Shown: piece by piece, positions 607 to 53,832 of the stretch
Layout of the letters: each line of letters opens with the position of its first letter
Position numbering within the stretch: position 1 is the first letter of the stretch
NCBI GenBank assembly: GCA_000091205.1
Contig: AP006484.2
Length of the DNA stretch: 64,000 bases
Source: Cyanidioschyzon merolae
Lineage: Eukaryota
Reading direction: 5' to 3' (one strand)
Translations under genes and position numbers: made by a program
Notes under the pieces: generated by a model
Databases searched by the model: none
What the model was told of the DNA's origin: nothing
Seen by the model: the letters and a program-made list of their open reading frames with translations, nothing else

Positions 607-3027
607 GGGGTACGGTGACTGACCCTGCCGTCGATCTTGCATCTGGAAGAGGCGTTGCATACAAGTCCAAGAAAATGCCGTGGGCACGTGCTGTGCGGTT
701 GCAGGTCGCCGGCGACGCCTCACAGGTGTCGCGTGAAAACGGAACACTGAACGAACTACCCTAAGTGTGCCTTGTGATGTCGGGGGAATTTTCTCATGCG
801 TACCGTCTTGACATTCGACGTGGAGGAGTCAAGAATTATTGTGGATGCGTACGTCGTTTTAGGATTCTGGATTGTCTTTTGGGAGCTGCTGTTTAGACTC
901 TTGGATACTGACATTCGTACAATCAACGGTATCAAGACAGTTCGTGAAGCGCTCGAACAAGGATTCCTAACGTGCATGGAATCGCTGTCCAATGCATAGG
1001 GGCAGGCTTCTATGCTTCTCGCCTCCTTACGTATGGAACGTTCAAATCCCGGATTCTTCAAACTTCGATCGTTCTGGTGCAAGGCAACGCCTGGGTACAG
1101 TGTTTGGTGCTACTGAAATGCCGAGGAGAAATACTCGACAGCATCCTTCGGCGACTTGATGGCAAGCTCTTGCGAAACGCTTCCCGTACTTTGCACGCCA
1201 AAAAATGAGTTTCGTAACCAAGCCAAATCACCATATCTTTGTAGGCGGAAACAGAACAAGACTCGACAGCTGCATGGTACCGCGTTAGAGGTTCGCTACC
1301 AGAGACTCCGACTCTTCGGTTTGCGTAGACGGAGGTCCTAGATTTGGACCTGAATCCTAGCAGCAAGCTCTTTCAGCGCAAAGGTTGTGACTGCTTTGCG
1401 TGAAGGGATCGTGAACGGATCGAAGTTTCTCGACTTGCTCTCCAGCATGGATTTTGCTTCCAGTACTCGTCTCGTCATGGACAGCATCGCATTCGATATA
1501 TCTTCAATAGCCTAGAAGTGCGGATATCTGCGTGTTCGGCAGCCAATGTACTCACCGTGGACTTTGCCCCGCAGAAGCCCGCGATTCCTGTGCACGGCAC
1601 TGGACCATGAAACGGTGGAGGGCATTCACGATAGCCCGGTGAACCGATCGAGTAGATGAACCGAGCGATACACCAAGCGTTTATGCTCCAGGAGCGGTCT
1701 TCAGACGAGGAAAAATAGGTAGTCATGGTGCGTTATGGTGCACTCCTAAGGAGATACCGCACCATAGCAAATAGTCGGCGCTATCAAGGGCGCTCCGATG
1801 CTGTAAACAAAGAGAATGAACATGGCAAGAAAAGTCGAGAATGCATTCGCTCATAGCCCTCCTGATCATGCTATGCGCGGACAACAGCCAGAGGCGACGA
1901 CATGGTGTCATGAAGCCTGCCATCAACGTCCTCCAAGTGATGCAAACCGAACTGAAGAGACAGGAGACACCCACGAGATTCAAGCCGGAGGTACGAGAGC
2001 TCCGAAGAAAGCAGTCGCAGAAAAAAGATCGCAAAGGCTACCACGAGCACCAGCTGGTAAAAGCTGCAAACTTCACTATGTACACTCGAGTTCGCTAGGT
2101 GTGCGCCCGTCCCACTTTTATTCTACAAGTGTCATAAGCGCGCTTGGACTCAAGTATCCCGGAGAATACAGGACGCAAGATATGAACCGAGTTCTATGGA
2201 TTCCATCGAATCAGGAAAACTCCAGGTCTGTTCAGGCTCAACGATCTACCGGCACAGCGGACACTATAGCTTAACTCCTTTCCGCCGATCCAAAAGCGTG
2301 CAGGAGACAACAACAACAACAACTAGAGCAACAACGCTACCCGACTTTCTATCCCTGGTGCCGTACGCTGCACTGCAGCGCTTTGAGCGGCGTTCCGTTC
2401 AGTGACGTTACCAAGCGCGTTTCGCACCTGCTTTCTTTCCGCTATCGTACTTGTCGGGTACGCTCATAACATTGACTAGGTGCACATTGAACATACTCGG
2501 GTTCCCGCGGAACCCTTCGAAAGGCTTCGCTTTGAAGACAGCGTGCAAGCGAGCCGCAGCTCGAAGAACAGGATCCGTAGCTGCTCGAAGCGAGCACACC
2601 TAGTCCGCTATTCCGCTTAGGCTTGGATAGCTATCGAGTCGTCGTTCGCGTTCGGGTGGAGTCTGTGGGACCAGGAGACCTCCGGCGCTAGTTTAGGTCT
2701 GGTCTCGAACAGGTACTGTGCATATATTTGTCTTGGAGTCCGAATAAGCCGGTGTGTCGTACGACTTTAGAAACTCCGAGACCTACCATTGTTGACGGGT
2801 GGGTGTACGGCGGCTGGTGCCTAGTTGTGCTTAGGAATCGTCAACAAGCGCATCGGAGGTCAAGTTTCTTGCACGCTGTCACAAGACTCGCTGCCCAGGG
2901 GTCTCTTCACGGCACACGGCGGCTCGAAGGAGCGTTTCGTGAACCAGAGAGAACGCGGCTTCTGTGGCTGCGTTTTTAGAGACGCCTGCTCGCCGACTCT
3001 ATTCCAAGTGACCCCGAGAGCACCGCT

Positions 3028-6000
3028 ATGGAGCCCGTTGAACACACAAACAGCAGCGAGGTATCCGCTGCCGCTAGAGCGACCCAAGATCACAACGACG
3101 AACGAGAGGGAGCACCAGTGAGCGGGGCGGTGGTTCCTGCGGAAGCTGATCCGCTATCCCATCTAGTGCAGGAACAGAGTGCCCTACAAGCGCTGCACAA
3201 ACGGGCGCCCCGAATCATGGACGACCCGGATTTCGAAGGGGAATCCCGTGACCCAGTGCTCCAGGTTGACAAAGATGACGAAGGTCCACGACCAGCAGCC
3301 GCTGAGCCTACAACGCTCCAGCGTGTCGCAACCACGTCGGACGAAAGCATACTGGGAAACGCTTCACCGGCCAGCGAGCGCGGACTTGTTTCAGACACAT
3401 TGCCACATGCAACAGATGCAGACGTGACCGATGAATGGGCTCGTCGCCGCAAACGTACGCGTTCGAGTCCAGAACTCGCCGAGGGTGATATCGAACTCCT
3501 GCGTGAAGCCGGTGTTGTGATTCCAGAGCGACAGTTGCATCCAGGAGGTCGTCGGTCTCGCCGGCGTCGACGACTTCGCCAGGCCGCAGACCTGGAGATG
3601 ACCTCTGAGAACGACGATGACGAAAACGACAAGATCGAGGCTTCCCCTGATACGACCTCCGTAGCACCGTTTGGCATGATTGGCGACAGAGACGAAGCCG
3701 ATAGAGCTGCAGGCGCTGTGGACGCTCAAAAGTTCACGTCTGTCGGAGAAAAGCAAGCGTCGTTGCCTGCTAGTCCTCATCAAGCAGCGAATGCCACGGT
3801 GGGTGCTTCAGGCCTGGGTGCCGGCATCGGCGGCACCGATGATCAGAATCTCGCAGATGAGGCGTCGATCGACCAAAACTCTGAAATAGAGGAAGAAGAA
3901 ATCGGCAGCGACGATGATGAGGATGATTTAGCCGACTTCATTGACTATGGTGATGGGGCAGCTGGGCAACGTCGCCGCCGCCTCGCCCGTGAACGAGCGA
4001 GAGCTGCTTTGCAAGCCTCACTCCGAGGCGGGCGCCTGTCCAGCGAACTGGATCCTTACGCTGCAGCACTGCTGCGAGAGCTCTTCGGTGATGCCGATTC
4101 ACTTGAGAACTACCGCGGAGAGCCGCTTCTCTATCACGATGATCCCGAGCAGATTCGCAAATGGCTCCAGAGAATCGGCGTCAATGATCCACGCGATATT
4201 GAGAACGTCTTGTCGCTGGAGTCGTGGGCAGTACCAGAGCCGTCGTCAGCGGAGGAGGATGCATCGACGGGTGCGGAAGCCTCCAAGAGCGCCGGACACG
4301 AGAGCCTCTCCGTCGAGCAGACAGAGCTGCTCGCGGAAATGTATGCAACGCCTCAGGATGATGCGATTCGTGCACTGGATTTGCCGGAGTACACCCAACT
4401 CTATCACTGCGGGCGGGATCAAGCGGGGAATCCACTCCCTCGCGAGCTCATGGACGAGAGCGATATTCGTTACGAGGCAGAGTGGATCGTCACCAACGGA
4501 CTCGTGGACCTGCTTCGGTCGAGTAGACAGGCGGCTCCAGAGTCATCGCTCGTGGATCAGGTCGCGCATTTGCTGCGCTTCCTGCATCTGGAGCACCTGG
4601 ACATCGCCTTTATCGCCATGTATCGACGAGATTACCTGGAACCCGATCTTCTGCCTCCGCTCGAGCGAGGCACTGGCGAGCAACAAGCTCCAGTGCTGGA
4701 GAGTCCGACACATTTCGTGGGCGACTGGACACGCCTCTGGCGAGTCCTCGACTGGGACCGATACTATTTCCAGTTCCTTCAGCAGAAGCGCCGCCTTATG
4801 GACGTTTATGAGGAACAGGGTGAAGAGGAGCTTTTGCAGCTGGCTACGGCAGCATTCCGCCGTGAGATGCTCCAGGATGTGGAAAAATACGCGCGACTGC
4901 GTCGGGAGCTAGCTCACGGGGACAAGAATGGATCGGCATCAGCGTCAGCAGGTCGTGAAGAGGCTGCAAGTCCCGAGTCGCTGCGTCAGGTGGCAGCAGA
5001 AACTCTGCTGGCGCCCAGCACCGACGCCTACCAGCGACAGGAGCACCGCACCGCAGCTGCAGCTGCGGCGGAAGCGGCAAACGGCAGCATCCACCCTGAA
5101 GTCGGCCTTGATTCCGAAGCTGCTGGTACCGTCTCCGACGACGCAATGGATCAGTTGCAGCAAGCAACCGCTGCAGCTGCTTTGCGACACGCGTCAGACG
5201 ACGAAGAGCACCGGGATGCGGCACCTGTGCACTCGACCGAGACCCTAACGCCAACAATTGGGAATGCCGAGGCCATGCAGCCGCGAGCACGCGCGAAGAA
5301 CAGCAACAGCAGTAGCAGCAACAGTCGTAGCGATTTGCAGCGTACCAACGCTGAGATAGCGACTTCAGCGGAACAACCGGGAACACTGCAGCCTCGACAG
5401 GTGCACCCGCAAGCCCCTGGTCGTCGCAGGGCTGGTCGCACTCCGTCGCGTCGTGATGCGCTTCATGTGGCGATATCCTGGGTTGTTGCACACCAGCTCG
5501 ATGTAGAGGCGCTCTATGGCATCAAGGCTGCCGATTTGGCCTCCAACGTGCTCTCGGGTGGCAGTCTCATCACCGAACCTGCTGATCATCCAAACAAGCC
5601 GTCGCTCGAAGAACTGCTTCGATCTACTGATGTTACCGAGAGCACTGCTGCCGTCGGTATCGAACGGTATCTGCGCTACGTTCGTCAGGTAGCTGGGGCG
5701 CTTTATGCGGCACACCCGCGCCTTCGGCACTTTACCCGGACGCGTCTGCGCGAAAAGGCGCACCTCACCGTGAAACCGAGTGCGCGTGCCCTCCAAGACC
5801 TCGATATACTGGATCCTTTGCGTCCGTACTGTTCAGTGGAAGCGCTACCGGTTGCAGCCCTGGACCCAGCAGAAATGGCTCGTTTCATTTACGCTGAACG
5901 CCTTGGCCTGGTGGAGCACATGGAATGCTCGCTAGCGGCGCCTGATGAAGCGGAGCTCGAGTCCATCCTGGAACGCGCGCTCCTCAGCGACAAGTTGTAC

Positions 6001-13950: not shown

Positions 13951-15600
13951 GGCAGGTGCCTGGAGGCACTGATCCTCGACACGGGAACTCGAAGCGAAGC
14001 ACGGGGGAACTGTTTTCCGTATTGTGGAAAGATCACCTTGTAGGCAGGTGCCTGGAGGCACTGATCCTCGACACGGGAACTCGAAGCGAAGCACGGGGAA
14101 ACTGTTTTCCGTATTGTGGAAAGATCACCTTATAGGCAGGTGCCTGGAGGCACTGATCCTCGACACGGGAACTCGAAGCGAAGCACGGGGGACCTATTTT
14201 CCGTATTGTGGAAAGATCACCTTGTAGGCAGGTGCCTGGAGGCACTGATCCACTACAGGGGAACTCGAAGCGAAGCACGGGGAAACTGTTTTCCGTATTG
14301 TGGAAAGATCACCTTGTAGGCAGGTGCCTGGAGGCACTGATCCTCGACACGGGAACTCGAAGCGAAGCACGGGGAAACTGTTTTCCGTATTGTGGAAAGA
14401 TCACCTTGTAGGCAGACTGGAGGCAATGATCCTCGACACGGGAACTCGAAGCGAAGCACGGGGAAACTGTTTTCCGTATTGTGGAAAGATCACCTTATAG
14501 GCAGGTGCCTGGAGGCACTGATCCTCGACACGGGAACTCGAAGCGAAGCACGGGGAAACTGTTTTCCGTATTGTGGAAAGATCACCTTGTAGGCAGGTGC
14601 CTGGAGGCACTGATCCTCGACACGGGAACTCGAAGCGAAGCACGGGGGAACTGTTTTCCGTATTGTGGAAAGATCACCTTGTAGGCAGGTGCCTGGAGGC
14701 ACTGATCCTCGACACGGGAACTCGAAGCGAAGCACGGGGAAACTGTTTTCCGTATTGTGGAAAGATCACCTTATAGGCAGGTGCCTGGAGGCACTGATCC
14801 TCGACACGGGAACTCGAAGCGAAGCACGGGGGACCTATTTTCCGTATTGTGGAAAGATCACCTTGTAGGCAGGTGCCTGGAGGCACTGATCCACTACAGG
14901 GGAACTCGAAGCGAAGCACGGGGAAACTGTTTTCCGTATTGTGGAAAGATCACCTTGTAGGCAGGTGCCTGGAGGCACTGATCCTCGACACGGGAACTCG
15001 AAGCGAAGCACGGGGGAACTGTTTTCCGTATTGTGGAAAGATCACCTTGTAGGCAGGTGCCTGGAGGCACTGATCCTCGACACGGGAACTCGAAGCGAAG
15101 CACGGGGAAACTGTTTTCCGTATTGTGGAAAGATCACCTTGTAGGCAGGTGCCTGGAGGCACTGATCCTCGACACGGGAACTCGAAGCGAAGCACGGGGA
15201 AACTGTTTTCCGTATTGTGGAAAGATCACCTTATAGGCAGGTGCCTGGAGGCACTGATCCTCGACAGGGGAACTCGAAGCGAAGCACGGGGGAACTGTTT
15301 TCCGTATTGTGGAAAGATCACCTTATAGGCAGGTGCCTGGAGGCACTGATCCTCGACACGGGAACTCGAAGCGAAGCACGAACGTGCAACAAGGTCGTTC
15401 TATCCTTATGGTAAGCGTTGCACGGGGGAACTGTTTTCCGTATTGTGGAAAGATCACCTTGTAGGCAGACTGGAGGCAATGATCCTCGACACGGGAACTC
15501 GAAGCGAGGCACGAACTTACAACAATTTTGTTTCCATCCTTATGGTAAGCGAAGCACAGGGAACTATTTTCCGTATTGTGGAAAGATCACCTGGTAGGCA
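13951..15600. repeat. Tandem satellite array of about 18 monomers of 92 bp. One 89-bp variant occurs; the distal monomers are irregular and carry about 45-bp insertions.
   Basis: Monomer: ggcaggtgcctggaggcactgatcctcgacacgggaactcgaagcgaagcacggggaaactgttttccgtattgtggaaagatcaccttgta. The phase is visible as the repeated 66-67 aa ORFs in the track at 14024, 14116, ..., 15217 (spacing 92, 92, 92, 92, 89, 92, ...). Monomers at 14024, 14116 and 14208 are identical to those at 14665, 14757 and 14849, which gives a 641-bp higher-order period. The array begins about 390 bp upstream of the NOG1 start codon. Confidence 0.95.
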
Positions 15601-16160
15601 GAAGGTTTCGTGAGCTAGACGAGTCTGCTAGGCTGGTGCTTCACTCTCTAGACAGTGGCAGGTGCTGTGGCGAGCTCTGAGCAGCTCGTCTGCAACGCAA
15701 TTCATTCTGGGACTAGGTGCAGTTAGGCTGAGTCTGGGCTTCGCACTGGTCGTGGTTGACTCCTAGCTTATCGATTCGTGCTGTCGCAGGCAGTCGGTCT
15801 GCCTGTACACTTTACATGCTCCCAGAATAGCTATGTACTCCGACTCCTTGTCGAATGGAGCAGGCATCGAGCCGAAACCCCGCCCCCCCACCAGTGGTGT
15901 GGCAAAGCCGTTCTGGCCCCGTGCTACGTACGCACTACCAGCACAGGCGCTACTGCGGGTGCTCATGGCAAGTACTCGGCGCACGATAGACCGTACGAAA
16001 CAACCAGTATATTCGAGAGGAACTAGGGGTCATGGAACCTGGAGGCCGGATGCTGCATGACGAACTTTTTTTCGAATGCTAATATCCATCCCACAGCCTA
16101 GGAACCATGGCCAATGTAAATGCTTTTTTCAGAGAGAAACACGCGCCCAATGGAGCGATC
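15560..16160. repeat. Dispersed repeat family A, copy 1, about 600 bp, directly following the satellite array
   Basis: Homologous over its whole length to 25801-26410. Examples: cgtctgcaacgcaattcattctgggactagg versus cgtctgcaacccagtttattctgggaatagg; tggcaaagccgttctggccccgtgc versus tagcaaagccgttctgtctccgtgc; aaccagtatattcgagagg versus aaccagtatatccgagcgg; atccatcccacagcctaggaaccatggccaatg versus atccatcccgctacgctggatccatggtccatgg. Confidence 0.85.
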
Positions 16161-19153: not shown

Positions 19154-22100
19154 AGGTAACGGTGGTAAACGTCCAGTGAAGCCGGAATGCGGCGGTTACC
19201 TCGTTGTGTGCAACTGCAGGCACCCAAGGCGACGTAAAGCTATTGAAGTGCATCGGCGGCGCCTGTGGTGCCGGCGCCCGGTGCGACGGCACCATGGATG
19301 CGCTGTCGGAGGTTTGTATGCTCGGGGTCACGGGGGATGCCCTGCTCTTTTCTCCAAAAGTATTGTGGATCGAGTAAAATGCCGGTGACTGGCCCGCAGC
19401 ACGTATGCAGCGCTTATACGGCTGCCAGGATAGAACTGCAACGAGTTCACTGACTCAACGAGGGCGAACACGCGCAAGTTTGCGTTATTTCATATCGTCA
19501 ACTGCACCAGAACTTGGGGGTTGGTTTTTCGGTCTCCTGTGTCGCGTCTCCAACTTTAAATACGCTGGTCTCTCGTTTCGCTCCGATTTCGTGAGCATCA
19601 GTCAGAGGATCGTGATAACAGGGCCAAATTCTCGTTCATAGGATTTCCGGTTGGCATAGACACGTGATAGGCGCAGGCGAAAGTTTCGATCGAATCTTCA
19701 TTGGCCATGCTCACCTATTTGTTTGCGGCATCGGCGTACGCTTTGCAGCGATCACACCCGACTATGGTCAGATGCTGCCTTGTCTCCAGCGTGCTTCCTC
19801 GTACGAGTACTGCCCTCCGGCGCTTGAACTGTTGCTGCATCGCTCTGTACACGCACTAGACGAGTACAGAAGACTCCCCGTCGATGCCCTCGACCGTTTT
19901 CGCGTCTGGTGCCGTACCCGAAGATCACGAGCTTCGTCAGTGGCGATGCCCCCGACGAGTACTCTGTATGCGTCATATGCGAGTGCGCACTGTTCCATGC
20001 CATTGAAGATTTGTGGATTGCGGTGTTCGCCATGGTGGTAGGGATTTGGAAGGAAAATGCAGGTTGGAGAACTTGCCGAGAACTATCGATCCGGTGGCGT
20101 TCTCTTCATGGAAACCTGTGAAGCTTTCCCCATTGGAAGCCGTCTCCGCTATGTGTAGAGTACGAATCCATGAACACTTTTCATGCAAACAGAAGACAGG
20201 GTAGCCTCTCTGGGAGCATATCCCCTGAATTGTATCGTGCTGCGGTTGAATCCGCCGATTCATCGACGGGCACACAGAGAGAAGCACCTGTCTTTCGACC
20301 CGCGTCGAGTATTTGACATGCGCTTGGGAAGAAGTCGTCAAGGAAGGTCGTCGAGATTCTCTCCTCATCGAAGCAGGGACGCGCATAGCTGTGCTCCTCG
20401 GTTACCTTGAAACAGAAAGATCGAGTTCTAGGAAACTGTATGAATTGAGCACGCGATATTTACGGAACGGAGAAGAGTCAAGGCTTGTTGTTCTGCATTG
20501 CGTTAAAATATCGGTTATTATAAGAGCCCTTGTACGAATCTGTCGCATGTCACTGTGATGATGGTGAGGTGACGAATTCTACTGGGACTTTGTCGAAGGG
20601 GCCGTCCCGGAGAAAACAACCGCCGAGAATCGTAAACCAAGGTATGCATCCAAGAACGCCAATTCCCGCACTTCGAAATTAGAGGCGCAATATCAACACA
20701 AGTTCGCAGAGAAAATCGACAGATAGAAACAGAACGAGCAGTTCAGTTCGCGATGGTAGTTCGACACCATTGTGGAGCGCAGCAGCGTATCGCGCTCGTT
20801 CGACTGTACCTGGACGAGTTCGGATAATGTGCAGTCGGGCACACGAACCAGCCCGGGCAGAACTTGGTCCAGGCTCACCTGGGATGCTGGAGTGTCCTGA
20901 GGCGCAACTGGGTATGCCCGTTTGCCGAAACGATTCATTGTCGTTCGTTGGCACTCGTTTAGAGAGACACCCAGCTGCTAGACATGTGTGCACCATGCGT
21001 CCTTGGTGCGTGCGAGCGACGAATATCCCAATGTCGTCGGATCCCGTGGATGACAACCACGCAGCATCGACTCGTTACTCGTTCGACGCACTAGTTGATG
21101 CCGCGGGCGTGCCGCCATCGCGTGCTATAGCGCGTCCTGCGCCAAAGGCGAATACCGCACCACGTGACTTGTCGGTCATGTTCTTTGCCACTTCATTGAT
21201 GAAGCCCGCAAATCTATGCATCTTGCCTCCATGCAACCGATACCGTTGGCGGCCCCAGCGAGGTCTCTCGGAACGCTGTCGAAAATCGTTCGCACGAGCC
21301 ATGTGGACGCTTCTGCTCTGTCCAGTGCTGGGCGCTACGGAATCGATGTTGGCACTGTCACGCCATTTGTTGGTATATACGCTGGCGTCCATAATGCTCG
21401 ACTACCCATAAACGCGAACAATGGAGAAATCAAGCCATATTACATATTCTGTCTGAGCATCAATTACCCTGTCATATGAAGGTTCTATCGAAAATTTCGA
21501 GAGGCATCTGCTCAGCTGGTAGCCCTGCGTCCGGATCGGCTACAGCAAGTCGTTTGACGAGGTGCATCGGGGCGAGAGCGGTGCCTCGCGAGACTTTGTC
21601 GCGTAAGGAGCTATGCGATATCTGTTGGCGTCCTGAATCTATCGATTAGCCGGAGACGAACTTGTTGGCTAGTGATCTATGCGCGTAAAAACCGCGTTTG
21701 CCGATAGTGACAATGCCGTACACTGGATAGAAGCTGGGAGCATGGGCTGGTACGAAGACCAGGTCCAGCCAAATTCCAGCTGTATGCTCCCTGTTTCTTG
21801 TTCAGTCATGGAACGCGACATTGCTAACGAGCAGGACAGACGAATTTGGTAAGGAGGAGCTTGGCAGAGAGACTCGATGAACGACGCGTCGTCGAGCAAT
21901 CCTAACCGTTCGGCGATTTGGGGCCGGCCTCACGCTTGACTCCCCGCTGGGCCTGAAGCCGTTGTCGCACGTGCTTGACTCCTCTTTACGGCCGGAGGTC
22001 TGCCCCTACTTCATCAACGATGCACAGACCTGCCAGTCTTCCCGAATCAAGACTCATCGAATGAGACGAACACCATCCAAACCTGTACTGACAAAAATTC

Positions 22101-24984: not shown

Positions 24985-25700
24985 CAGCCTGTCCGAGTAC
25001 ACTTCTAGCCTGAGAGAGGCTGCGTTACAAAGATAGATTGCCTCGGCTCCTCGGGTCTTGTTTCAGCACCGCTCATCTTCTGATATTCATGGCGGCGTTG
25101 AAGTCTCAGTTCACAAACTCGATGCGTTTCTTACCTCTGGTTGAACTCACCAATGCAAGGAGTCCTATAGCTCGTGCCATGTGTGCCCCTACAGCCTCGT
25201 CAGCGCCTCGCCGCGTAAACCCATTGCTCGCTTATCTCCTGTCTTGTTCTTCTTCTTCTTCTTCGTCGCTTGCGCTTCATCGCGTGACAGTCAGAGAGAA
25301 GGGGATTTTGTTCGTTCCTCCCGGGCAGCCGGCGATGGCGGCCCTCGAGGCTCCTCGGCTTCCTTGTCCACCAGTTTCGTTTTTAGTTTTGAAAACGAAC
25401 GCATTTTAAACGCATCTGCTATAAACCGCGAAGGAGTACTTGAATACACGAATCTGAAGGCCGGAACGCATTTGGGATCAAACATCATATTTTGCTCCGG
25501 CTTCAACGCAAATACAACTTGCACGGTAGAGCAGCGGGCTTGATGACGCCATGCTTTGCGCTTGTCGTGCATTGAGCACGTCACCGGCAACAGTGCACAT
25601 TCCGAATGCAACATCGCTAGTTTTCTGGCAAGTCAACGAGTAATCAGGATCGCGTTTCCCTTCAACAGCAACATGCGCGTCGTGTCTCATGCCCGACAGC
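24985..25700 (-). pseudogene. Deleted, degenerate second copy of the Fanzor/TnpB-like element. It keeps a C-terminal RuvC-III fragment with in-frame stops and an upstream leader homologue.
   Basis: Minus-strand translation of about 25060-25170 gives LALVSSTRGKKRIEFVN*DFNAAMNIRR*AVL. The intact copy reads LALVSTTNDGKKRMEFVNRDFNAAINIRRCAVL. The 3' flank at 24985-25040 matches 49830-49860 (tttttcgacccgcagcctgttactggtttc versus tttttcgaccggccacgcactactggttcc). The segment 25640-25700 matches 52540-52600 (cgtttcccttcaacagcaacatgcgcgtcgtgtctcat versus cgtttcccttcaacggcggcgcgcgcgtcgtgtctcat). Confidence 0.6.
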
Positions 25701-25800
25701 TATGGAGGTACGGATCTCGGCTGCGCTATAGAAAAAAGAACAGAAACGATCCACTCCGTGGCAACTAGATCAAAAGTTCTTTCGCCTCTACTATAAGCGT

Positions 25801-26410
25801 TGAAACGGGAACAGCTTTCCGTATTTTGCAAAGTTCACCTTCTCGGCGGAAAGTCCTGCAGGTCGGACAAGACTACTAGGCTAATACGCTGCACTCTACG
25901 GAGCGAAGGGTACTGTAGTGAGATCTGGGCAGCCCGTCTGCAACCCAGTTTATTCTGGGAATAGGGTCTGGTATGCTTCGTCTGGGCATCGTTTTGGTCG
26001 TAGTGCTCTTCTTGCATATCGCTTCGCGTTGTCGCGGGCAGCAAGTCTGTCTGCACAGCTTGCAAGCTCCCGGAATTACACTGAATCCCGATTCTGTGAC
26101 TAGTGCACCACACCTCGCGCAGACGCCATCAGTGGTATAGCAAAGCCGTTCTGTCTCCGTGCAGCATCCGCACAGGCGGTATAAGCGCTATTGTGAGTGC
26201 TCAGATCACGTTAGGTGCACAGTGGAACGTGCAAAATAACCAGTATATCCGAGCGGAAGTACGAATAATGGAACTTGGACTTGTTGGGCAGCCTGCTTGA
26301 CACTTTTTCGAACGCCAGCATCCATCCCGCTACGCTGGATCCATGGTCCATGGAAACGTTTTGGCAAAGAAAGAAATTCGCCCACCGGCGGCATTTGCCG
26401 TAGCTGGAGC
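25801..26410. repeat. Dispersed repeat family A, copy 2. Its first about 60 bp are one diverged monomer of the 92-bp satellite.
   Basis: Copy 2 reads acgggaacagctttccgtattttgcaaagttcacctt; the satellite monomer reads acgggggaactgttttccgtattgtggaaagatcacctt. The rest aligns to 15620-16160 as described for copy 1. Confidence 0.85.
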
Positions 26411-35176: not shown

Positions 35177-37209
35177 CGCTCCGTCAACGGGTGTGCCAAC
35201 GGGTTTCAGACGCAGCTGCTGACCCTAGTACGGCATTGCAGACGCGCACGCGCGCACGAACCGCTGCGCCTTGCTGGAAATGCGCTCATCGGACGGGCGA
35301 TTCGGGGCTCGGGCGCGCTTATCACCTGCGGATCTTGCAGTTTCTTCGGATTCATGTATTGAACCCGAGTTCCTCGGATACGTGAAGGATCTCGGCTGGT
35401 AGAGAAGCCTCCACTGTTCATACTCACATGAGCCTGCTGCCTGTCGGTCTTAGAGCCGTGTTCCTGTAGGGAACAGAAGCTGGATGGGATCCAGCGACCC
35501 CGAAAGCACCAATGAAGGGCGCGTGCAGCATTGCTGAATATTTCGTGATACAGTATCAGCGAATCGTGTGATGTTTTCCTGCATACCCAATTGACGTATT
35601 TGAGCAAGGAAGAGAATTCAATGCCTCTATATACGTTTCTGCGTAAATCACAGTCCAGATCAGTCTTCCTATCACGAATCTACGCTGTAATGGCCAAGAA
35701 ATCTTGGGCAGGGTAACCAGCACACCGCAAACAATCGCTGCAACGCTGATTGCGGAGCTGCTGCTGCTGCTGCTGCTGCCGTTGTGGACAATCATTCGCG
35801 ACTGAACAGTTCTGCGCTGCCTGTATGCGCGTCGACTCGAGGCCGCCGCCGCCGCCGCCGCCGCGAACGCTCGTGCATCGTGGGCGAACGCGCAAAGCCG
35901 TTCGTGAACGGTGAATCATAAGCTGGGCTTTCGTGTCACATGTTTTCGTATAAGTCAGCCAGACACTCATGTCATGCAATACGCGGAAGAGCGCTACTAT
36001 CCTAACTCGAGCGTACGCTGCACAGTTTGGGTCTGCTCCCACTATCATCGATGCCGGTGTTTGCGGGCTGTTTCAGCGACGGCTTTCTCTTCTTCCCTCA
36101 TATACTGGGCGTTACGTACGTCGGTTTCTCCGGTACCTCCAGTTCCACTTTCATCAGTCTTGGGATATTTATGGTTGTGTTCAAGTCCCGATTCCAATGC
36201 TTCTGTCTGTTGTCCATGACTTGCATACACAGGCGCAACTCGCGTTGGACGCTTCGTTTGCCAATTTCATGGACTCTGTATACAGTTTCGGTGAGCCCTC
36301 GGCTGCGCGGACACGTTGCCTTGGTCAGATATTCCCATATGTCCACCAGGCCTCCTCATCTGAAGGTCGATCTGTGAAGCGTGACCGGCTGCTTCATCGC
36401 TTGCAACATGCCCTTGACGAGTACAGAAGGCGAGCCTCGGTACCGCCCTCTGTATCCGCGCCATGAGCTGGGCGCTATGCTCGCGAGCGTCCCCTTAACG
36501 ATTCCTCGGCGAGTACGCTGTCCGCTGCACACGCTGTTCCATTCCATAGCATACTTGTCGGATGCGATGTCGTCCATGGTGAAACGGGTACTGAAAGGAA
36601 GATCCTGGCCGGAGAACAAGTCGTGAAATTTCGTACCGTCTGCACTCTTGTAGTACGAAGTGGAGGCGCACGTTGCGCCGGAACCGACCGCTGCGATGAC
36701 TCTAGTTCGTGTCTACGACGTTTTCCTAGCTTACATAAGATACAAGATCTTCTCTAGGCATATCACTTGCTAGTTATAATGCTGTTGCCGAATGCGTTCG
36801 TCGATTGCCACAAATAGAGGATAATTTGAATTCCGAAGGGATTCAATTATGCGACATGATAAGTTCAGTGACCTTTTCGCATGAGCTTTTGAACAAATCG
36901 CCAACGGACAATGCCGCGTATCGCTTTCCTCGGTAGCCCGGCAGCGCGGATAGCTGCGCCCTCGAGTCGCCATGAAACGGAAAGATCATCCGTTTGAAGC
37001 AGGCATGATTTGAGTCTGCTATACGTAAGGAAATCAGAATCGTGATGCGTTTTACGTATGGGTTGGGTAATGATATCGGTTCGGTTACGAAACCTTATCT
37101 CAGGACGTCACGGAACGTCTTTGTTCCTGTATCGTAACAAAGTCGACGGACGATGCGCCGAAATAGTCTCTCCCGAACGACGACCATGCATCCTAAATTG
37201 ACGATATCA

Positions 37210-48392: not shown

Positions 48393-49724
48393 ATGAAGCA
48401 GACTGAGCCCATGGAAACTGAGACGCAGTCAGAAACGCCTACAGCACCAAGTTCACGTGAGTCCGTTTCTGAGCAGAGCGGGGCGGTGTCGGCCGAGTCA
48501 CGGAAGGTGTTGCCTCGGATCGCAAGTGCGGGCAATGAGCTCTATCGCGCAGCGGCGCCTGGTGTGCCATCCGCGGTGACTGCTTCGTATTCTGACTTTA
48601 TTGCACAACAGCAGCATTATCAGCAGCAACAGAGAAGTTTAAGCGGCAGTGGTGGCAGCGGTCTTCGTCATAGCTTTTCGTGGGGTTCGTTCGTAGCGGC
48701 ACCACCGTTCGCCGTCGGGTATGGAAGCGGTATCGGAGGCAGCGTCCCTAACCTGAGCTCTGGGGCTGCCCCGTTGGGTGCCGCAGAGATTCTCGCACAA
48801 AACGCATACCTCCACTCGGAACTAAACCGGGCGCAGTCGGAAATACAGGCACTACGGAATCGTATTTACGAGCTGGAGATGCACCTGGGGGTTGCCAGCT
48901 GTGGCGTCCGTTCCCCGACTGAAAGAGCATCAACACCTCCAGCTCCGGCGAGCGCTGGTCAGGGCAAGGCGCCAGGCAGCAGCACTGCGGTCGCTTTGGG
49001 CTCTGGGCCAGTGCTGACTGCGCCGCCGCCCTTGCACGTAGCAACTGCAGTTCCGTTTGGAGGATCAGCTGCGATACCGGCTTCTGGTGTTGGCGCGCTG
49101 TACTCTAACAATCGAGTGATGCCCTGCATGTCAATGCCGCATAGCTCGAGTCCACTGAATTTGCCAGCCTGGCGACCAGATCGGTTTTCGCCGTCTCCAC
49201 CACCCGCCCAGTTTGGCAGCGGCCTCAGCACCAGCGCTACTACTGCATCTGGGCGCGCGGCATCTGTGCCAAACCAACCGTTTTCCTCTGCTGGACCTGG
49301 TAGTAGTCATGCGCGGCCGGGGCTCGCCGCAAAGAGCATGCTCGCCCGACACGATTCTCTAGGTTCCATCAGCAAAGACAGCCATAACAGCCACGCGGAT
49401 GAATACGGAACTGGGGGTTACAGCAGCAGCAGTGGAAGCAGTCTTCGTATTGGAGAACGTAGACGATCTCAATCATCCTCGAAACGACGTGGAAGAGCCT
49501 CATCAGTGGGGTCGGCACCGGAGACCGGAACCCCGCAGCCACGGTACTGGACTCAGGAGGAACACCAACGTTTCCTGGAAGCTCTGGAAAAATTCGGAAC
49601 CCGGAACGTGAGAGCGATCAGCGAGTATGTTGGTACTCGAAACGCAACGCAGGTTCGCACCCATGCACAGAAGTACTTCTTGCGGCTCACTAGAGAGGCA
49701 GAGAGGAAAACCTCGCGACCATGA
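48393..49724 (+). CDS. MYB-like transcription factor (single SANT/MYB repeat, SHAQKYF class) with a long Ser/Ala/Gly-rich N-terminal region
   Basis: The C-terminus has RYWTQEEHQRFLEALEKFGTRNVRAISEYVGTRNATQVRTHAQKYFLRL, which is a canonical SHAQKYF-type MYB repeat. Confidence 0.7.
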   Translation: MKQTEPMETETQSETPTAPSSRESVSEQSGAVSAESRKVLPRIASAGNELYRAAAPGVPSAVTASYSDFIAQQQHYQQQQRSLSGSGGSGLRHSFSWGSFVAAPPFAVGYGSGIGGSVPNLSSGAAPLGAAEILAQNAYLHSELNRAQSEIQALRNRIYELEMHLGVASCGVRSPTERASTPPAPASAGQGKAPGSSTAVALGSGPVLTAPPPLHVATAVPFGGSAAIPASGVGALYSNNRVMPCMSMPHSSSPLNLPAWRPDRFSPSPPPAQFGSGLSTSATTASGRAASVPNQPFSSAGPGSSHARPGLAAKSMLARHDSLGSISKDSHNSHADEYGTGGYSSSSGSSLRIGERRRSQSSSKRRGRASSVGSAPETGTPQPRYWTQEEHQRFLEALEKFGTRNVRAISEYVGTRNATQVRTHAQKYFLRLTREAERKTSRP

Positions 49725-49918
49725 CACCACCGCCTTTCGAAAGTCGAACGACGTCGCCGACGGTATAGCGTAGTGGCGGCAAACGGGCCTTAGACAAATC
49801 GTCTCCAACTGATGTGCAGACGCCTCCCCGTCTTTTTCGACCGGCCACGCACTACTGGTTCCCACTTTTTCTCATATAGTTCGATTTTGAGGGGTTGTCC
49901 TACAAAGGACCTTGTTGT

Positions 49919-50791
49919 CTACTCTGGAGGTCTTTTCTCCAGCACCGCACATCTCCTTATATTGATAGCGGCGTTAAAGTCTCTGTTAACAAATTCCATA
50001 CGTTTCTTGCCATCATTGGTTGTACTTACTAGTGCAAGTAGTCCTCGAACTTTTGCCATCCTTTCCATTTGCTCGTCTGTCAGCGGTCCGTACTTTGCGA
50101 TTTCCTCAGGGCTCCACTGGCACTTTTCCATCTCGACCCTCTGAAGTCTACACCCCAGTTCATGGTGCGTATACGATGTTCGGAACTCATCTACGGATAT
50201 TGTAACGAAACGTCGTGCACACTCTTTGTACACCCTCGTCGTTGGAGAAGACGTATTCTCTTTCTTGGGCGCCCAGCGCCCTGCCCCATACGCTACTACG
50301 AGCCTCTGACTCTCATCCTCCTTCAAGGCGACCAACTGATTGAAAAAGTTGGCAAACGCCCGCTGTTTCCCGCCGTATAGATTCATTCGCAAACGAGCCC
50401 ACCGGGGCTTGGTATCCTCCTCCCACAGCGCATCCCAATGAGCAACACGAATTTCCATGAATTTCCGAAAAGCTTCAAAGTCCGCTCCTCGGCTCGTCAC
50501 CTCGCTCAAAGCTCCCAGGTGATCCTTCATTCCTGAATTCCAAGTCTCGATTTTCTTCCTCGCATTCATCATTCCCAATTCTCGATAGTATCTCGCTCTC
50601 GAGAACCCCAAAAGACGCATGTCTTTCTGACGCAAGTTACCGTCAATGCCATCTTCCGCACGCTTTGGTGCTGCGATGGTTATGATATTCGTGTTCCCAG
50701 GGTCCGCGCCAACGACAAAGTCGTTATCCTGCACTTTCTGTGTCCGAGGGCCCGCCTTCTTGTTTTCTACATGCTTCGCCGCGCCAACCAT
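49919..50791 (-). CDS. RuvC-nuclease segment of a TnpB/Fanzor-like protein (C-terminal 290 aa)
   Basis: RuvC-I: VVGADPGNTNIITIAAP (compare GIDxG). The pre-zinc-finger motif is SVDEFRTSYTHHELGC (compare VDPRYTSQTC in TnpB). RuvC-III: FVNRDFNAAINIRR (compare DxNAAxNI). A CTGGAG-7nt-CTCCAG hairpin at 49924-49942 overlaps the last codons. The stop codon is TAG at 49919-49921. Confidence 0.75.
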   Translation of the reverse strand: MVGAAKHVENKKAGPRTQKVQDNDFVVGADPGNTNIITIAAPKRAEDGIDGNLRQKDMRLLGFSRARYYRELGMMNARKKIETWNSGMKDHLGALSEVTSRGADFEAFRKFMEIRVAHWDALWEEDTKPRWARLRMNLYGGKQRAFANFFNQLVALKEDESQRLVVAYGAGRWAPKKENTSSPTTRVYKECARRFVTISVDEFRTSYTHHELGCRLQRVEMEKCQWSPEEIAKYGPLTDEQMERMAKVRGLLALVSTTNDGKKRMEFVNRDFNAAINIRRCAVLEKRPPE

Positions 50792-51160
50792 AAAGGCGTT
50801 ATCCTACACCTCCTGCATCACAGGATCCGCCTCCTTCTCGTGTTCACCCTTGGTCACGTTAACGACAAAGTCGTTATCTTGCACTATCTGCTTCTCAGAA
50901 CGCGCCTTGTTGTTTTCTTCATGCTCAGACAGGCCAGCGACAAGGTTGTCATCCTCCACCTCCTGCATCGCAGGACCAGCCTCCTCCTTTTCTTCATCCT
51001 TCGTCACGTCAACGACAAGGTCGTTATCCGCACCTCCTGCGTCGCAGGATCCTCCTCTTTGTTTTCTTCATCCTTCGCCACGTCAAGGACGAGGTCATTA
51101 TCCTCCACTTCCTATGTCGCAGGACCAGCCTCCTCCTTTTCTTCATCCTTTGTCACGGGC
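50700..51160 (-). repeat. Internal tandem repeat inside the Fanzor-like gene: about 6 units of 75-78 bp encoding an acidic 25-26 aa module ([25 protein letters not shown]...)
   Basis: Repeats are visible on both strands. The plus-strand ORFs 50646-51248 and 50771-51205 show reiterated DKVVILHLL and TTKSLSCT strings. The minus-strand frames give [13 protein letters not shown](M/T)QEVEDDNLV units. Confidence 0.85.
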
Positions 51161-53832
51161 GCAGCCGAGGGCGCAACTGGCCGATCTCCCTTCAACGGCC
51201 GATAGTGTATACACAAGGCTACTCCATCGGTTTCAATCATCCCGCTGAACAACTTCTGCTTGCTCACTCTCAGAGGTTTGAAATCGAAGATGCTCTTCCT
51301 GTACGTCTCCCGGTTTTTACCAGAGAATTCCTCTGTGCTAACATTGGACTCTGGACTGATCTCCTTCATGATGCCATGAAGGACGCCGGAGTTGATAGTC
51401 ACAAAATGTGACTCGATCTTGCACATTGGAACCACGTTGAAGCGCTTACCCATTAGGACAGACTTCCGTCTCTCCCACTCTTCATTTGTCTCTTCACTCA
51501 GCTTCATCTCCGCTTCGCGTTCGAGTTCACGGTCCAAAAACACAAGATACCGCAGGGAGAGGCGATAGTATTTTTCCTTATCTATTTTCAACTCTGATAC
51601 CTTTTCTGTTGGATTCACCAGCCCCAAGACTGCACGGTGCTCTTGTATAGCCGCACGGGTTACAGAAGCTTCATTCGTGCTCCCTTTTGACGTCTACTTG
51701 TCGACAAATTCGACCTCACCTTGATGCTTGCGATCTCTCGTGATGCCATTGATCATCGCCCATATTCCTTTGCGAGAGATACCTGGGTAGAGTGCAACCG
51801 CGGCGCGTACTATGAAACATTCGAGGATCACTGTCAAATGGTTCTTCAGATTCGTGAGGTACTTCATCGCTCCGTATGTGTAAATACCCTGGCCACCCTT
51901 GTATCGATTACCCTCGAAGCGGAATTCCGCGAAGTTTTCGTGGAGGCCGTCCACTAGCACATTTTCCTTCCGCGCTTCCGCTGTACCAAAGATGAGGTAA
52001 CGAAAAAAGGTCTTTTCGAAAAACTCGTCCGGAATCTCGACCGTTTCCATGTGCGTCACGTCGCGATACATCTCCCTCGCTAAATGCATCAGTCCTGACG
52101 ACGCCTCTATAATACTCTTGGAGTCCGAATCGACACGGTTTCTGATAGCGTCTCGCAAATTTTCTCTGCAGGGATCCTTGACATGTCCAAGAAGAGAGGT
52201 ATTCACAACCATCTCGTTGTACAGTCGTCTTTCTTGCAGCCTTCGACGCAGGACCTTCCCCTTTTGGGTCTTCTTCTCTTCCTTTTCTCCTGGACTCGGC
52301 ACTGTTTTTTGTTTTTTCTGGCAGCCTGCGACCCTGGGCCTCCAGGATCGTCGACTTCCTTTTCATAACTTTTCTTTTCTAGTTTTTTTAAATGAACCCT
52401 CTGTGAACGCTTCTGTTATATACTGCGAAAAATCAATCGAATATTTTCACTTGAGGGTTGAAACACAATCGAACTAAAAACTATACTTGCCTATGAAATT
52501 AACGAAAATACAACTTTTACACGAGAGCTAGACGCTAAAGATCAAGATCACGTTTCCCTTCAACGGCGGCGCGCGCGTCGTGTCTCATATCTGCCCCAAC
52601 TCTCAGGTACGCTCATCGAGCGCGATGCATGCGCTGCGCGAGACGCCTCATCGATCGATGAAGGACACGTGTCCGACACCCCGCCTTGGCATATGCGTGT
52701 TTGTATCGCGCTGCAGCTGAAGTAAAGTATCGTAGATTGGAAACTCACGTAGAGTAATCTCTTGCTATAGGCTCTGTCGCTGGTGCCGAAGCTACTGCCC
52801 ATCGCAGTACCGCCTTGACATACATGGAGATGTAGGGGCCTGGCACGATACCCCTCGACGCTTCTATCAAAAGCGTAGCGTTCTCTGCGGCTTACGCTTG
52901 TCTGGATAAGGTACGCATCACTCTAGCCTTGAAGAGTTTCGTTAGTTTTATTGATCGTAAACAAACAAGGGACGGTAGGATTCCTGAACACGGACATACG
53001 TTTAATTCCTATGCTTGTTATGCATGCCGCACGGACGCTGGAATAAGGACCTGACCTGAATTTTGCTTCTATCCCGCGTCATGGGCTAGAACCGATGATA
53101 GTTCAAGTCATTTCCATGCTATCGTCGTTGTCCAAGTTATGATGCCCGCTACGTCCCCCGGATCCGGTGGTCTCGGCAGAGGCATACCACATATGTGGCG
53201 TCCATATCTGCCACGACGTTTGAGCCTTGCATCTCGCCTGGCACGATCGAGGCATCCGGCAATAGCACATATTGTGTTCTGATCTACTCTATAAGATTGG
53301 TTTCAAGAGCCTAACCCGTACATCGAGCCCGGAAGCGACATAGCCAACAACAAATGCCTTTGAAAAGAAAAACTTTTTCGCCGGCCGTGCAGAGTAGTGG
53401 CGAGTGACCCGCCCCAGACATGACGTGTCCAACTGACGTGCAGACGCTTCCAAAATAACGTAGCGCCGGAGGAAATTCCTTTACACCTCCTCTACGTTAT
53501 TCGTCAGTGAGCTGCTGCGACGTGTCTTCACGATAATTGTGATCTCTGAACTCAGCATCGCGGAGCGCTGACCGACCAGTACTGACGAGATTGTTGCTCG
53601 GAAAACAGCGAGTTTTGCCTAGTTTCTGAGAAATACTTTCAGCGCTTGTGCGGGTTGTGCTCAAAGTTGGACAGTCCAGGGGAGATTGAGGTCGGCATCA
53701 GCACCAATGGACGGGCGATCACACGTGCAGCAACGCAAAAGATGTTTTCGACTGGATATGCACACCTACGCGAAAGACTCTAGCCGGTGACGTGATCGAC
53801 AGCTTTGCACCGGAGAAAATCTAACCGAGAAA

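Follow-up and report, generated by a model that had tools for sequence, protein, structure and literature searches.

A decayed CMe-1A transposon copy with the remnant of a Fanzor1 nuclease gene on chromosome 2 of Cyanidioschyzon merolae

The closest described relatives of the locus considered here belong to CMe-1A, a transposon family of Cyanidioschyzon merolae comprising about 150 copies of ~3 kb, which are ~80% identical to their consensus and lack TIRs (Bao & Jurka 2013, PMC3627910). Its 734-aa consensus protein, CMe-1, was classed as Fanzor1 in the same work (Mobile DNA 4:12; Repbase), and intact copies are still present in strain 10D according to these authors. The Fanzor1 motif defined by them includes a [TS][TS]-x-x-C4 zinc finger, yet CMe-1 is included in the group (PMC3627910). 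Fanzors have Gly or Pro in place of the canonical RuvC-II glutamate, together with an alternative glutamate that is conserved ~35-45 residues downstream (PMC10530073).

The window, a stretch of 64,000 nucleotides, is part of chromosome 2 of C. merolae 10D and has exact matches to the annotated proteins BAM78953.1, BAM78951.1 and CYME_CMB153C. One locus within it is almost certainly a single decayed, 5'-variant copy of CMe-1A, a ~3-kb non-autonomous family whose only gene is the Fanzor1 gene CMe-1 (Table 1). When aligned by blastn and globally with the consensus derived from Repbase (supplement 2 of PMC3627910), the copy was 86% identical over 2519 aligned columns, as against the ~80% or more within the C. 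merolae genome that marks a member of the family, and the 3' end of the copy is that of the consensus. Homology begins at consensus position 648, the first 647 bp of the consensus, i.e. the TE-N2_CMe module (~635-647 bp), being absent, and the copy instead carries another 5' module common to ~10-16 further copies. The limits of the repeat unit were set from 78 non-orthologous loci. Related stretches number at least 360 in metagenome contigs, and the 290-aa ORF has 293 database relatives, which places it far beyond chance. The suggestion in a preliminary description that the locus is probably unannotated seems to hold for the locus itself, for which no annotated NCBI protein is apparent, but not for the family, which was already described in 2013 as CMe-1A/CMe-1 (PMC3627910); the Fanzor call is correct and ordinary. 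Nor is this the only nuclease-type mobile-element gene of the window, as had been supposed, given the presence of further CMe-1A, TE-N2_CMe and Fanzor1-like relics.

Table 1. Features of the CMe-1A copy and of related relics in the window
Feature	Position	Strand	Basis and remarks
CMe-1A transposon copy	49731..52624 (from ~49717 with terminal hairpin)	-	homologous to consensus 648-3169
Fanzor1 (CMe-1) CDS remnant	49790..52366	-	consensus-frame codon walk, gap list, paralogue N-termini
Start codon and basic, NLS-like N-terminus, broken by two 1-nt deletions (~52364, ~52317)	52315..52366	-	gap list
N-terminal half of protein	51158..52302	-	family profile A3, hmmsearch on six-frame segments: E=1.5e-34, 5.1e-35
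Premature TAG	51694..51696	-	consensus AAG (Lys225); paralogue P0085 reads VDKKTS
Tandem array, 75 bp x 6, acidic 25-aa unit, WED-RuvC linker	50710..51157	-	Tandem Repeats Finder
RuvC/TNB nuclease half	49922..50710	-	profile A3 match, E=2.4e-100
Premature TAG, fourth	49919..49921	-	consensus TTG (Leu692); TGG or TTG in other copies
C-terminal tail (..TRSFVGQPLKIELYEKKWEPVVRGRSKKTGRRLHISWRRFV), cut off by premature stop	49793..49918	-	consensus and paralogues
3' untranslated end with two hairpins, the terminal one degraded in this copy	49717..49789	-	folding of 3' ends
Solo 3' fragment, last 96 nt of CMe-1A (consensus 3073-3168, 80% identity)	53356..53451	-	~730 bp upstream of main copy
Deleted CMe-1A copy	25052-26366		
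TE-N2_CMe copy	15568-16131		
Two divergent Fanzor1-like relics	21078-21434 and 36101-36355		

The coding remnant is spread over four minus-strand ORFs, at 51694-52302 (202 aa), 51112-51627 (171 aa), 50804-51007 (67 aa) and 49919-50791 (290 aa). These ORFs, the three RuvC motifs, three internal TAG codons and a 1-nt deletion had all been correctly located by the preliminary description within 49919-52302, whereas the gene ends and the length of ~790 aa proposed there require revision. Alignment to the family consensus identifies ATG 52364-52366 as the start codon in place of GTG 52302, and the paralogue N-termini read MKKQVDDPGGPGS..ARKKQKTVPSPEEKEEKK; the TAG at 49919-49921 is a premature stop, and the natural stop is TAA 49790-49792 (TAG in the CMe-1A consensus), giving a protein of ~859 aa once repaired. 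Similarly, the four lesions first listed are real, but the total amounts to four premature TAGs and three 1-nt deletions (~52364, ~52317 in a poly-A run, and ~51030). The frame is thereby broken into pieces of at most 290 aa, and this copy cannot make the full Fanzor1 protein. An identical fragmentation of the ORF is found at the orthologous locus of related strains (L001-L003, metagenome contigs), which indicates a fixed pseudogene. The N-terminal half probably holds the REC and WED domains, to judge from Fanzor1 homology, with positions 144-448 of the family profile aligning to the REC/WED region of PpFz1, and the C-terminal tail is disordered in the structure model.

Between the two halves lies an acidic tandem array with six copies of the 25-aa unit, as compared to one in the CMe-1A consensus (a gain of 374 nt); among 53 copies of the element the number of units ranges from 1 to 6, and the repeat is predicted to be disordered in a paralogue model. 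Three of the lesions, namely TAG 51112-51114, the deletion at ~51030 and TAG 50804-50806, fall inside the array, where the sibling repeats read CAG and GAG, respectively, at the two stops, exactly as first noted.

The history of decay can be traced in the pattern of substitutions. Compared to the consensus, the window copy has an overall Ka/Ks of 0.37, with a value of 0.21 for the RuvC region. Across 62 copies of the latter region, codon positions 1 and 2 are 0.90-0.95 identical to the consensus, while position 3 (0.78-0.85, ~0.80) equals non-coding DNA (0.79-0.82), and the protein must therefore have been under selection before the window copy died. Purifying selection acted on the CMe-1 protein for most of the history of the family, and the death of this copy came later. 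Each of the 39 near-full-length copies sampled had at least one lesion, and when all 734 aa of the consensus were used as the query, no complete ORF with a canonical start and full tail was recovered, the longest (752 aa) having an alternative start and a truncated C-terminus.

Analysis of the nuclease half revealed a RuvC-I motif GADPGNTN (50687-50710, minus strand), whose Asp (50702-50704) is invariant in 74 diverse homologues. RuvC-II is rearranged, with VVAYGAG at the site of the canonical glutamate and an alternative Glu (50186-50188), likewise invariant in the 74 homologues, 33 residues later in a VDEFRTS motif (50174-50194). RuvC-III reads NRDFNAAINI (49958-49987, minus strand), and its Asp (49979-49981) is conserved in at least 90% of the homologues. 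Of the TS-x-x-C motif said to precede a degenerate zinc finger, the TS is present (..TSYTHHELGC..VRGLLALVST..), but the four C4 cysteines expected between RuvC-II and RuvC-III are absent from the window copy, the CMe-1 consensus and the 74-sequence clade alignment.

The search with family profiles that had been proposed as a check gave a divided answer. Pfam and NCBIfam scans of three ORFs returned just PF07282 at RuvC-III, below threshold (13.4 bits against a cut-off of 26.3, E=0.09); for long paralogues and ten distant full-length relatives the strongest Pfam match was again PF07282, with E=0.002, and PF26935 (DUF8286) appeared only as a faint precomputed match. Against PDB sequences neither phmmer with the 290-aa ORF nor a shallow paralogue profile found a match, whereas family profile A2 recovered the Parasitella Fanzor1 PpFz1 (9cf0) with E=5.4e-18 over two stretches, in addition to a Guillardia Fanzor1 at E=0.07. 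An AlphaFold model built on a shallow alignment of 29 paralogues was useless (pLDDT 41), and gains in both profile and model came only after distant homologues from a scan of 1.84 billion proteins had been added. The resulting model (pLDDT 78.5, pTM 0.73) is not of the repaired window sequence but of paralogue P0008, which is 80% identical to the window copy over the 290-aa RuvC ORF; it has ~110 disordered residues and includes just the C-terminal part of the REC/WED lobe. In the structure comparison, a further check proposed at the outset, Foldseek searches of the PDB with this model placed SpuFz, PpFz and GtFz at ranks 1-7 (E=8e-11 to 2e-6, TMq 0.42-0.54), followed by Cas12 and TnpB, with ISDra2 TnpB (8h1j) at E=1e-3. 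Two independent tests, the sequence profile and the predicted fold of a paralogue, place the locus in Fanzor1, and the original identification of a Fanzor/TnpB-type RuvC pseudogene stands.

Several alternative readings of these observations need to be weighed. All four premature stops are TAG, and the deletion at ~52317 lies in a slippery poly-A run, a short A-run being present at this point in the near-intact copy L017 as well; this might point to an intact gene in which the lesions are spliced out or passed by TAG suppression or programmed frameshifting. Such a gene is very improbable: the consensus and other copies have AAG, CAG, GAG and TTG at the four TAGs and remain coding and colinear through every proposed intron, in line with the original preference for point mutations over introns, and C. 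merolae has very few introns. Four different residues (K, Q, E and L) are replaced, which rules out a single reassignment. One substitution would suffice to turn GAG, AAG or CAG, all abundant codons, into TAG, and the consensus likewise has TAG as its natural stop. We consider it similarly far-fetched that the 290-aa C-terminal ORF, i.e. the RuvC half only, is a domesticated and expressed host protein. The ORF is unchanged in three metagenome contigs, and the 99%-identical P0001 lies at the orthologous locus, but near-identical strains are expected to conserve an ORF through recent common ancestry. Moreover, it begins within the disordered repeat, ends at a premature stop and has counterparts among similar arbitrary fragments in dozens of sibling copies, and the WED/REC half, by which a Fanzor1 holds its guide RNA and DNA (PMC11423790), is missing from it.

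Least probable of all are readings of the element as Fanzor2, as an IS607-type TnpB element or as a horizontally acquired prokaryotic TnpB. While the RuvC motifs shared with these are generic, and TnpB (8h1j) and Cas12 do occur lower in the fold search, the seven best fold matches and the sole significant sequence-profile matches are to Fanzor1, the repeat unit has no serine recombinase or other second gene, and CMe-1 was placed in Fanzor1 by Bao & Jurka (PMC3627910). A dead Fanzor1 copy of CMe-1A thus remains the preferred reading.

From what is established for Fanzor1, an intact copy would be expected to encode a nuclear, omega-RNA-guided DNA endonuclease with a single RuvC domain, whose predicted, rearranged catalytic triad would comprise the Asp of GADPG, the Glu of VDEFRTS and the Asp of NRDFNAA. 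By analogy with TnpB, it might cleave sites that are flanked by a TAM and match a guide, the guide being transcribed from the 3' end of the element, and such guide-directed cutting could help the element to persist or spread. In a Fanzor1 element the omega-RNA is expected to start at the 3' end of the ORF, or to overlap it, and to extend as far as the right end of the element. Folding of the last 260 nt of the window copy was no more stable than that of shuffled sequences (z=-0.77), and Rfam gave no match; the 59 nt after the stop show an identity of 0.82, with no excess conservation. RNAalifold on the 3' ends recovered only a small post-stop hairpin. Since the terminal hairpin lies in different registers in two subfamilies, sequences were folded singly and one subfamily was counted separately, and the hairpin then proved to be conserved in most copies, with a mean z of -2.65 and pairing in 80% of cells (slid controls, 34-52%). 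Its conservation suggests that the Repbase consensus lacks ~12 nt, and offers a hint of the way in which the element is recognised. Within the repeat unit the Fanzor ORF stands alone, with no transposase, serine recombinase or other second gene inside. Non-autonomous Helitron2-like elements combine a 3' hairpin, a T-rich target and ATIRs with an autonomous partner that encodes RepHel. The 5' flanks of CMe-1A copies are T-rich, with TTTC as the predicted target motif, and visual inspection of junction sequences revealed no convincing ATIRs; Helitron-like mobilisation of CMe-1A is a lead, not a result. A possible terminal direct repeat formed by the 3' 100 nt and the upstream solo fragment was discarded, the entire intervening stretch being common to just 3 loci.

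It is conceivable, if rather unlikely, that the CMe-1 lineage and ~1,200 mostly unannotated relatives (590-740 aa) form a distinct Fanzor1 clade that has lost the C4 zinc finger and that, in Cyanidioschyzon, carries an expandable acidic repeat in a WED-RuvC loop contacting the TAM/heteroduplex junction; the sense-strand, G.U-rich hairpin end could then be either the last scaffold stem of the omega-RNA or the recognition hairpin of a rolling-circle (HUH) transposase. Were a few of the 10D copies intact, as Bao & Jurka state, an RNA-guided nuclease that is still live and naturally adapted to heat and acid would exist in a tractable thermoacidophilic model alga, and the classification of CMe-1A might then be settled. 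As a discovery the locus carries little weight, since the paper that named Fanzor had already published the family with its copy number, the consensus at both DNA and protein level and the assignment to Fanzor1, and the copy is dead. It is nevertheless a clean worked example of a Fanzor pseudogene recognised without tools, by motifs alone, and adds small points for the specialist: evidence of selection from codon positions, a polymorphism of 1-6 acidic units in a functionally important loop, zinc-finger loss in a large clade and a conserved 3'-terminal hairpin.

With the CMe-1A consensus the window copy shares its host genome, single ORF and 3' end, at a divergence within the published range (~80%), and it differs in lacking the TE-N2_CMe 5' module, in its six rather than one acidic units and in its seven lesions. 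The Chlamydomonas CRe-1/2/3 Helitron2 elements (Bao & Jurka 2013, PMC3627910) are comparable: they too are non-autonomous and have a Fanzor1 ORF only, their 3' terminus forms a hairpin, the sequence 5' of the insertion is rich in T, and 3' ends are over-represented, the 5' ends being heterogeneous or truncated; the inspected CMe-1A junctions depart from them in the matter of ATIRs. ISDra2 TnpB (IS200/IS605, 8h1j) has the same RuvC fold, and a guide RNA may be expected at the 3' end of both elements, but the fold match is much weaker (E=1e-3, TMq 0.22), and unlike CMe-1 it possesses a canonical RuvC-II glutamate, a zinc finger and a TnpA partner. The closest likeness in fold is to the solved Fanzor1 proteins SpuFz1 (8gkh, 9cey), PpFz1 (9cf0) and GtFz1 (9cer). 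The CMe-1 clade differs from these in the absence of the C4 cysteines between the TS and RD motifs and in its repeat-expanded acidic WED-RuvC linker, and identity is just 12-18%; the predicted fold is nonetheless the same over ~480-600 aligned columns, as are the basic N-terminus and the triad of the DPG Asp, the alternative Glu in DEFRTS and the RD.NAA Asp, and homology to PpFz1 is evident at the profile level.

Three ORFs in the window match Cyanidioschyzon merolae 10D proteins without a single difference, namely the MYB-related protein BAM78953.1, the S-adenosylhomocysteine hydrolase BAM78951.1 and CYME_CMB153C, and the CMB locus tag places the window on chromosome 2. Fanzors were named by Bao & Jurka in 2013, who described from C. 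merolae the CMe-1A element, with ~150 copies each ~80% identical to a 3169-bp consensus that encodes a 734-aa Fanzor1, CMe-1; it is without TIRs, its TSDs were undetermined and its classification unknown as of 2013, and its first 635 bp constitute a separate element, TE-N2_CMe (PMC3627910). Alignment with the consensus DNA and protein from the supplementary files of that paper showed that window positions 52624-49731 match consensus positions 648-3169 at 86% identity, up to the final consensus base. This identity and the shared 3' end establish the element as a copy of the described family; it is thus already known and published, and the preliminary description, which had recognized a pseudogenised TnpB/Fanzor-like gene, was correct in substance. 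The copy displays a head-to-tail arrangement of four minus-strand ORFs, in the region given by that description, with its RuvC motifs all in the 290-aa ORF.

Features of the CMe-1A copy and of related relics in the window
Feature	Position	Strand	Basis or remark
ORF 202 aa	51694-52302	minus	
ORF 171 aa	51112-51627	minus	
ORF 67 aa	50804-51007	minus	
ORF 290 aa	49919-50791	minus	GADPGNTN, VDEFRTS, NRDFNAAINI
Tandem array, 75 bp x 6	50710-51157	minus	
Start codon ATG	52364-52366	minus	consensus frame
1-nt deletion	~52364	minus	consensus alignment
1-nt deletion in poly-A run	~52317	minus	consensus alignment
Premature TAG for Lys225	51694-51696	minus	consensus frame
Premature TAG for Leu692	49919-49921	minus	consensus frame
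Natural stop TAA	49790-49792	minus	consensus frame
5' module, ~500 bp	52625-53130	minus	in place of TE-N2_CMe
Solo CMe-1A 3' end, last 96 nt	53356-53451	minus	~730 bp upstream of element
Internally deleted CMe-1A copy	25052-26366	minus	consensus 4-730 + 742-969, ~77% identity
TE-N2_CMe copy	15568-16131	minus	consensus 4-554, 78% identity
Tandem array, 92 bp x 15.6	13951-15380	minus	96% matches; adjoins TE-N2_CMe copy
Divergent Fanzor1-like fragment	21078-21434	minus	family profile
Divergent Fanzor1-like fragment	36101-36355	minus	family profile

A Pfam scan of the window ORFs recovered a weak hit to PF07282 (E=0.09), and no matches came from searching PDB sequences with the ORF or a paralogue-only profile. 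Scanning 1.84 billion representative proteins with a profile recovered 1264 relatives, many of which are intact, 590-740 aa long and 31-44% identical, from metagenome or SRA contigs. A deeper profile combining the family with 20 of these relatives matched the solved Parasitella parasitica Fanzor1 (9cf0) with E=5.4e-18, with coverage of the REC/WED part as well as of the RuvC region at the C-terminus, and the Guillardia Fanzor1 with E=0.07, upholding the proposed TnpB/Fanzor affinity. The structural comparison points the same way: an AlphaFold model of the paralogue P0008 (80% identical to the 290-aa ORF), built from a 74-sequence alignment (pLDDT 78.5, pTM 0.73; disorder confined to the acidic repeats and C-terminal tail), recovered Fanzor1 structures as its top seven PDB matches (SpuFz, PpFz, GtFz; E=8e-11 to 2e-6), with Cas12 and TnpB next at E of at least 4e-4. 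Across that alignment DPG always has its Asp and DEFRTS its Glu, RD.NAA keeps its Asp in at least 90% of sequences, and the canonical RuvC-II position reads AYG(A/S), which together with the invariant DEFRTS Glu corresponds to the rearranged catalytic site known from Fanzors (PMC10530073). The classical TnpB/Fanzor motif requires a C4 zinc finger between TS and RD, whereas the four cysteines are absent there throughout the CMe-1 clade (homologue alignments A2/A3; window 49990-50180); the TS itself is present.

The three in-frame TAGs of the preliminary description were found at 51694-51696, 51112-51114 and 50804-50806 and its 1-nt deletion near 51030, and two of the TAGs do align with CAG and GAG of adjacent repeat units. 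These four lesions are genuine but the list was incomplete: followed codon-wise along the consensus frame, the copy bears four premature stops and three frameshifts. The TAG at the end of the 290-aa ORF, earlier taken as the true stop, is premature, and the repaired product would be ~859 aa rather than ~790 aa. The repeat region exceeds that of the consensus by 374 nt (five additional 75-bp units less one base), with two more TAGs inside. Introns at the lesion sites are ruled out, since the consensus and many paralogues are uninterrupted at each point; the lesions are therefore mutations, as first argued. The identical 202/171/67/290-aa fragmentation is found in three metagenome contigs at the orthologous locus, indicating a pseudogene fixed in the lineage, and the window copy is dead. 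As guessed, the locus appears unannotated, with the 290-aa ORF matched on JGI contigs only and by no NCBI protein.

Homology, fold, retention of the catalytic triad and the broken frame are all demonstrated. Going by the Fanzor1 literature (PMC10530073, PMC11423790), CMe-1 in its intact form would act in the nucleus as an endonuclease guided by omega-RNA, cutting double-stranded DNA in a TAM-dependent manner on behalf of the transposon. The last 260 nt of the window copy fold no more stably than shuffled sequences (z=-0.77), and an Rfam search gave no matches.

A metagenome scan recovered at least 360 related stretches; 80 loci were retrieved from among them. Non-orthologous loci share a repeat unit from ~49740 to ~52600-52700, and their comparison revealed no second gene within it. 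In 62 copies, once near-duplicates were dropped, identity to the consensus is 0.90-0.95 at codon positions 1+2 of the RuvC region, 0.78-0.85 at position 3 and 0.79-0.82 in non-coding parts. This contrast, with the Ka/Ks of the window copy against the consensus (0.37 overall, 0.21 in RuvC), indicates that the majority of the divergence built up under purifying selection on the protein, in agreement with the remark of Bao & Jurka that coding capacity was retained for an unusually long time (PMC3627910). None of the 39 near-full-length copies sampled is free of a stop or frameshift, and a full-consensus search found no complete ORF (the longest being 752 aa, with an alternative start and C-terminally truncated); intact copies are still present in 10D according to the 2013 paper (PMC3627910). 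The least damaged copy found, L017:3183-5516 (protein P0440), has a 778-codon open frame, and its C-terminal tail contains a premature TAA; its N-terminal poly-A run is 1 nt short, as in the window copy.

The 25-aa (75-bp) acidic unit occurs 1-6 times among 53 elements, once in the consensus and at the maximum of six in the window; length differences in this region are multiples of 3 in 43 of the 53. The repeat is located in the WED-RuvC loop, which in solved Fanzor1 structures stacks on the last TAM base pair (PMC11423790).

Contrary to the preliminary description, the window copy is not the sole nuclease-type mobile-element gene of the window. In the internally deleted CMe-1A copy a C-terminal coding fragment (aa 647-689) comes after the aligned blocks, and two short, far more divergent relics match the family profile, the YGGK..AYGA region at E=6e-11 and the RuvC-III region at E=9e-5; only one Fanzor family is listed for C. 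merolae in the 2013 paper (PMC3627910). The 92-bp array unit resembles consensus positions 520-563.

Most CMe-1A copies possess an imperfect 12-19-bp hairpin at the 3' terminus (e.g. L052:7027-7076, L042:1770-1819, L064:5998-6097 and L028:3574-3673 among related metagenome loci), which spans the published consensus end and extends ~10-14 nt beyond; the Repbase consensus is probably ~12 nt short there. Its sense strand has many G.U pairs, its register differs between two subfamilies, and one compensatory GC-to-UA change was seen. The mean z is -2.65, with 20 of 30 copies below -2, and one subfamily has 80% of its cells paired vs 34-52% in slid controls; in the window copy it is degraded (49717-49762, minus). 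A second, small hairpin follows the stop codon.

Full-length copies have a T-rich 5' flank (...TTTTCTTTC before CGATGAC...), and at the 5' junctions of L004, L016, L020, L028, L044, L048, L064 and L066 ..TTTTCTTTC or ..ATTTTTT precedes CGATGACAAAACG; this could reflect a target or TAM-like preference, or extra element bases. The 5' modules vary, at least four distinct ones being joined to the shared body at around consensus position 650, and that of the window copy is common to ~10-16 other copies; solo 3' ends also occur. These side observations are modest leads for specialists in transposons and Fanzors. One such lead is that the T-rich flanks, mixed 5' modules and solo 3' ends resemble those of the Fanzor1-carrying Helitron2 elements of Chlamydomonas.
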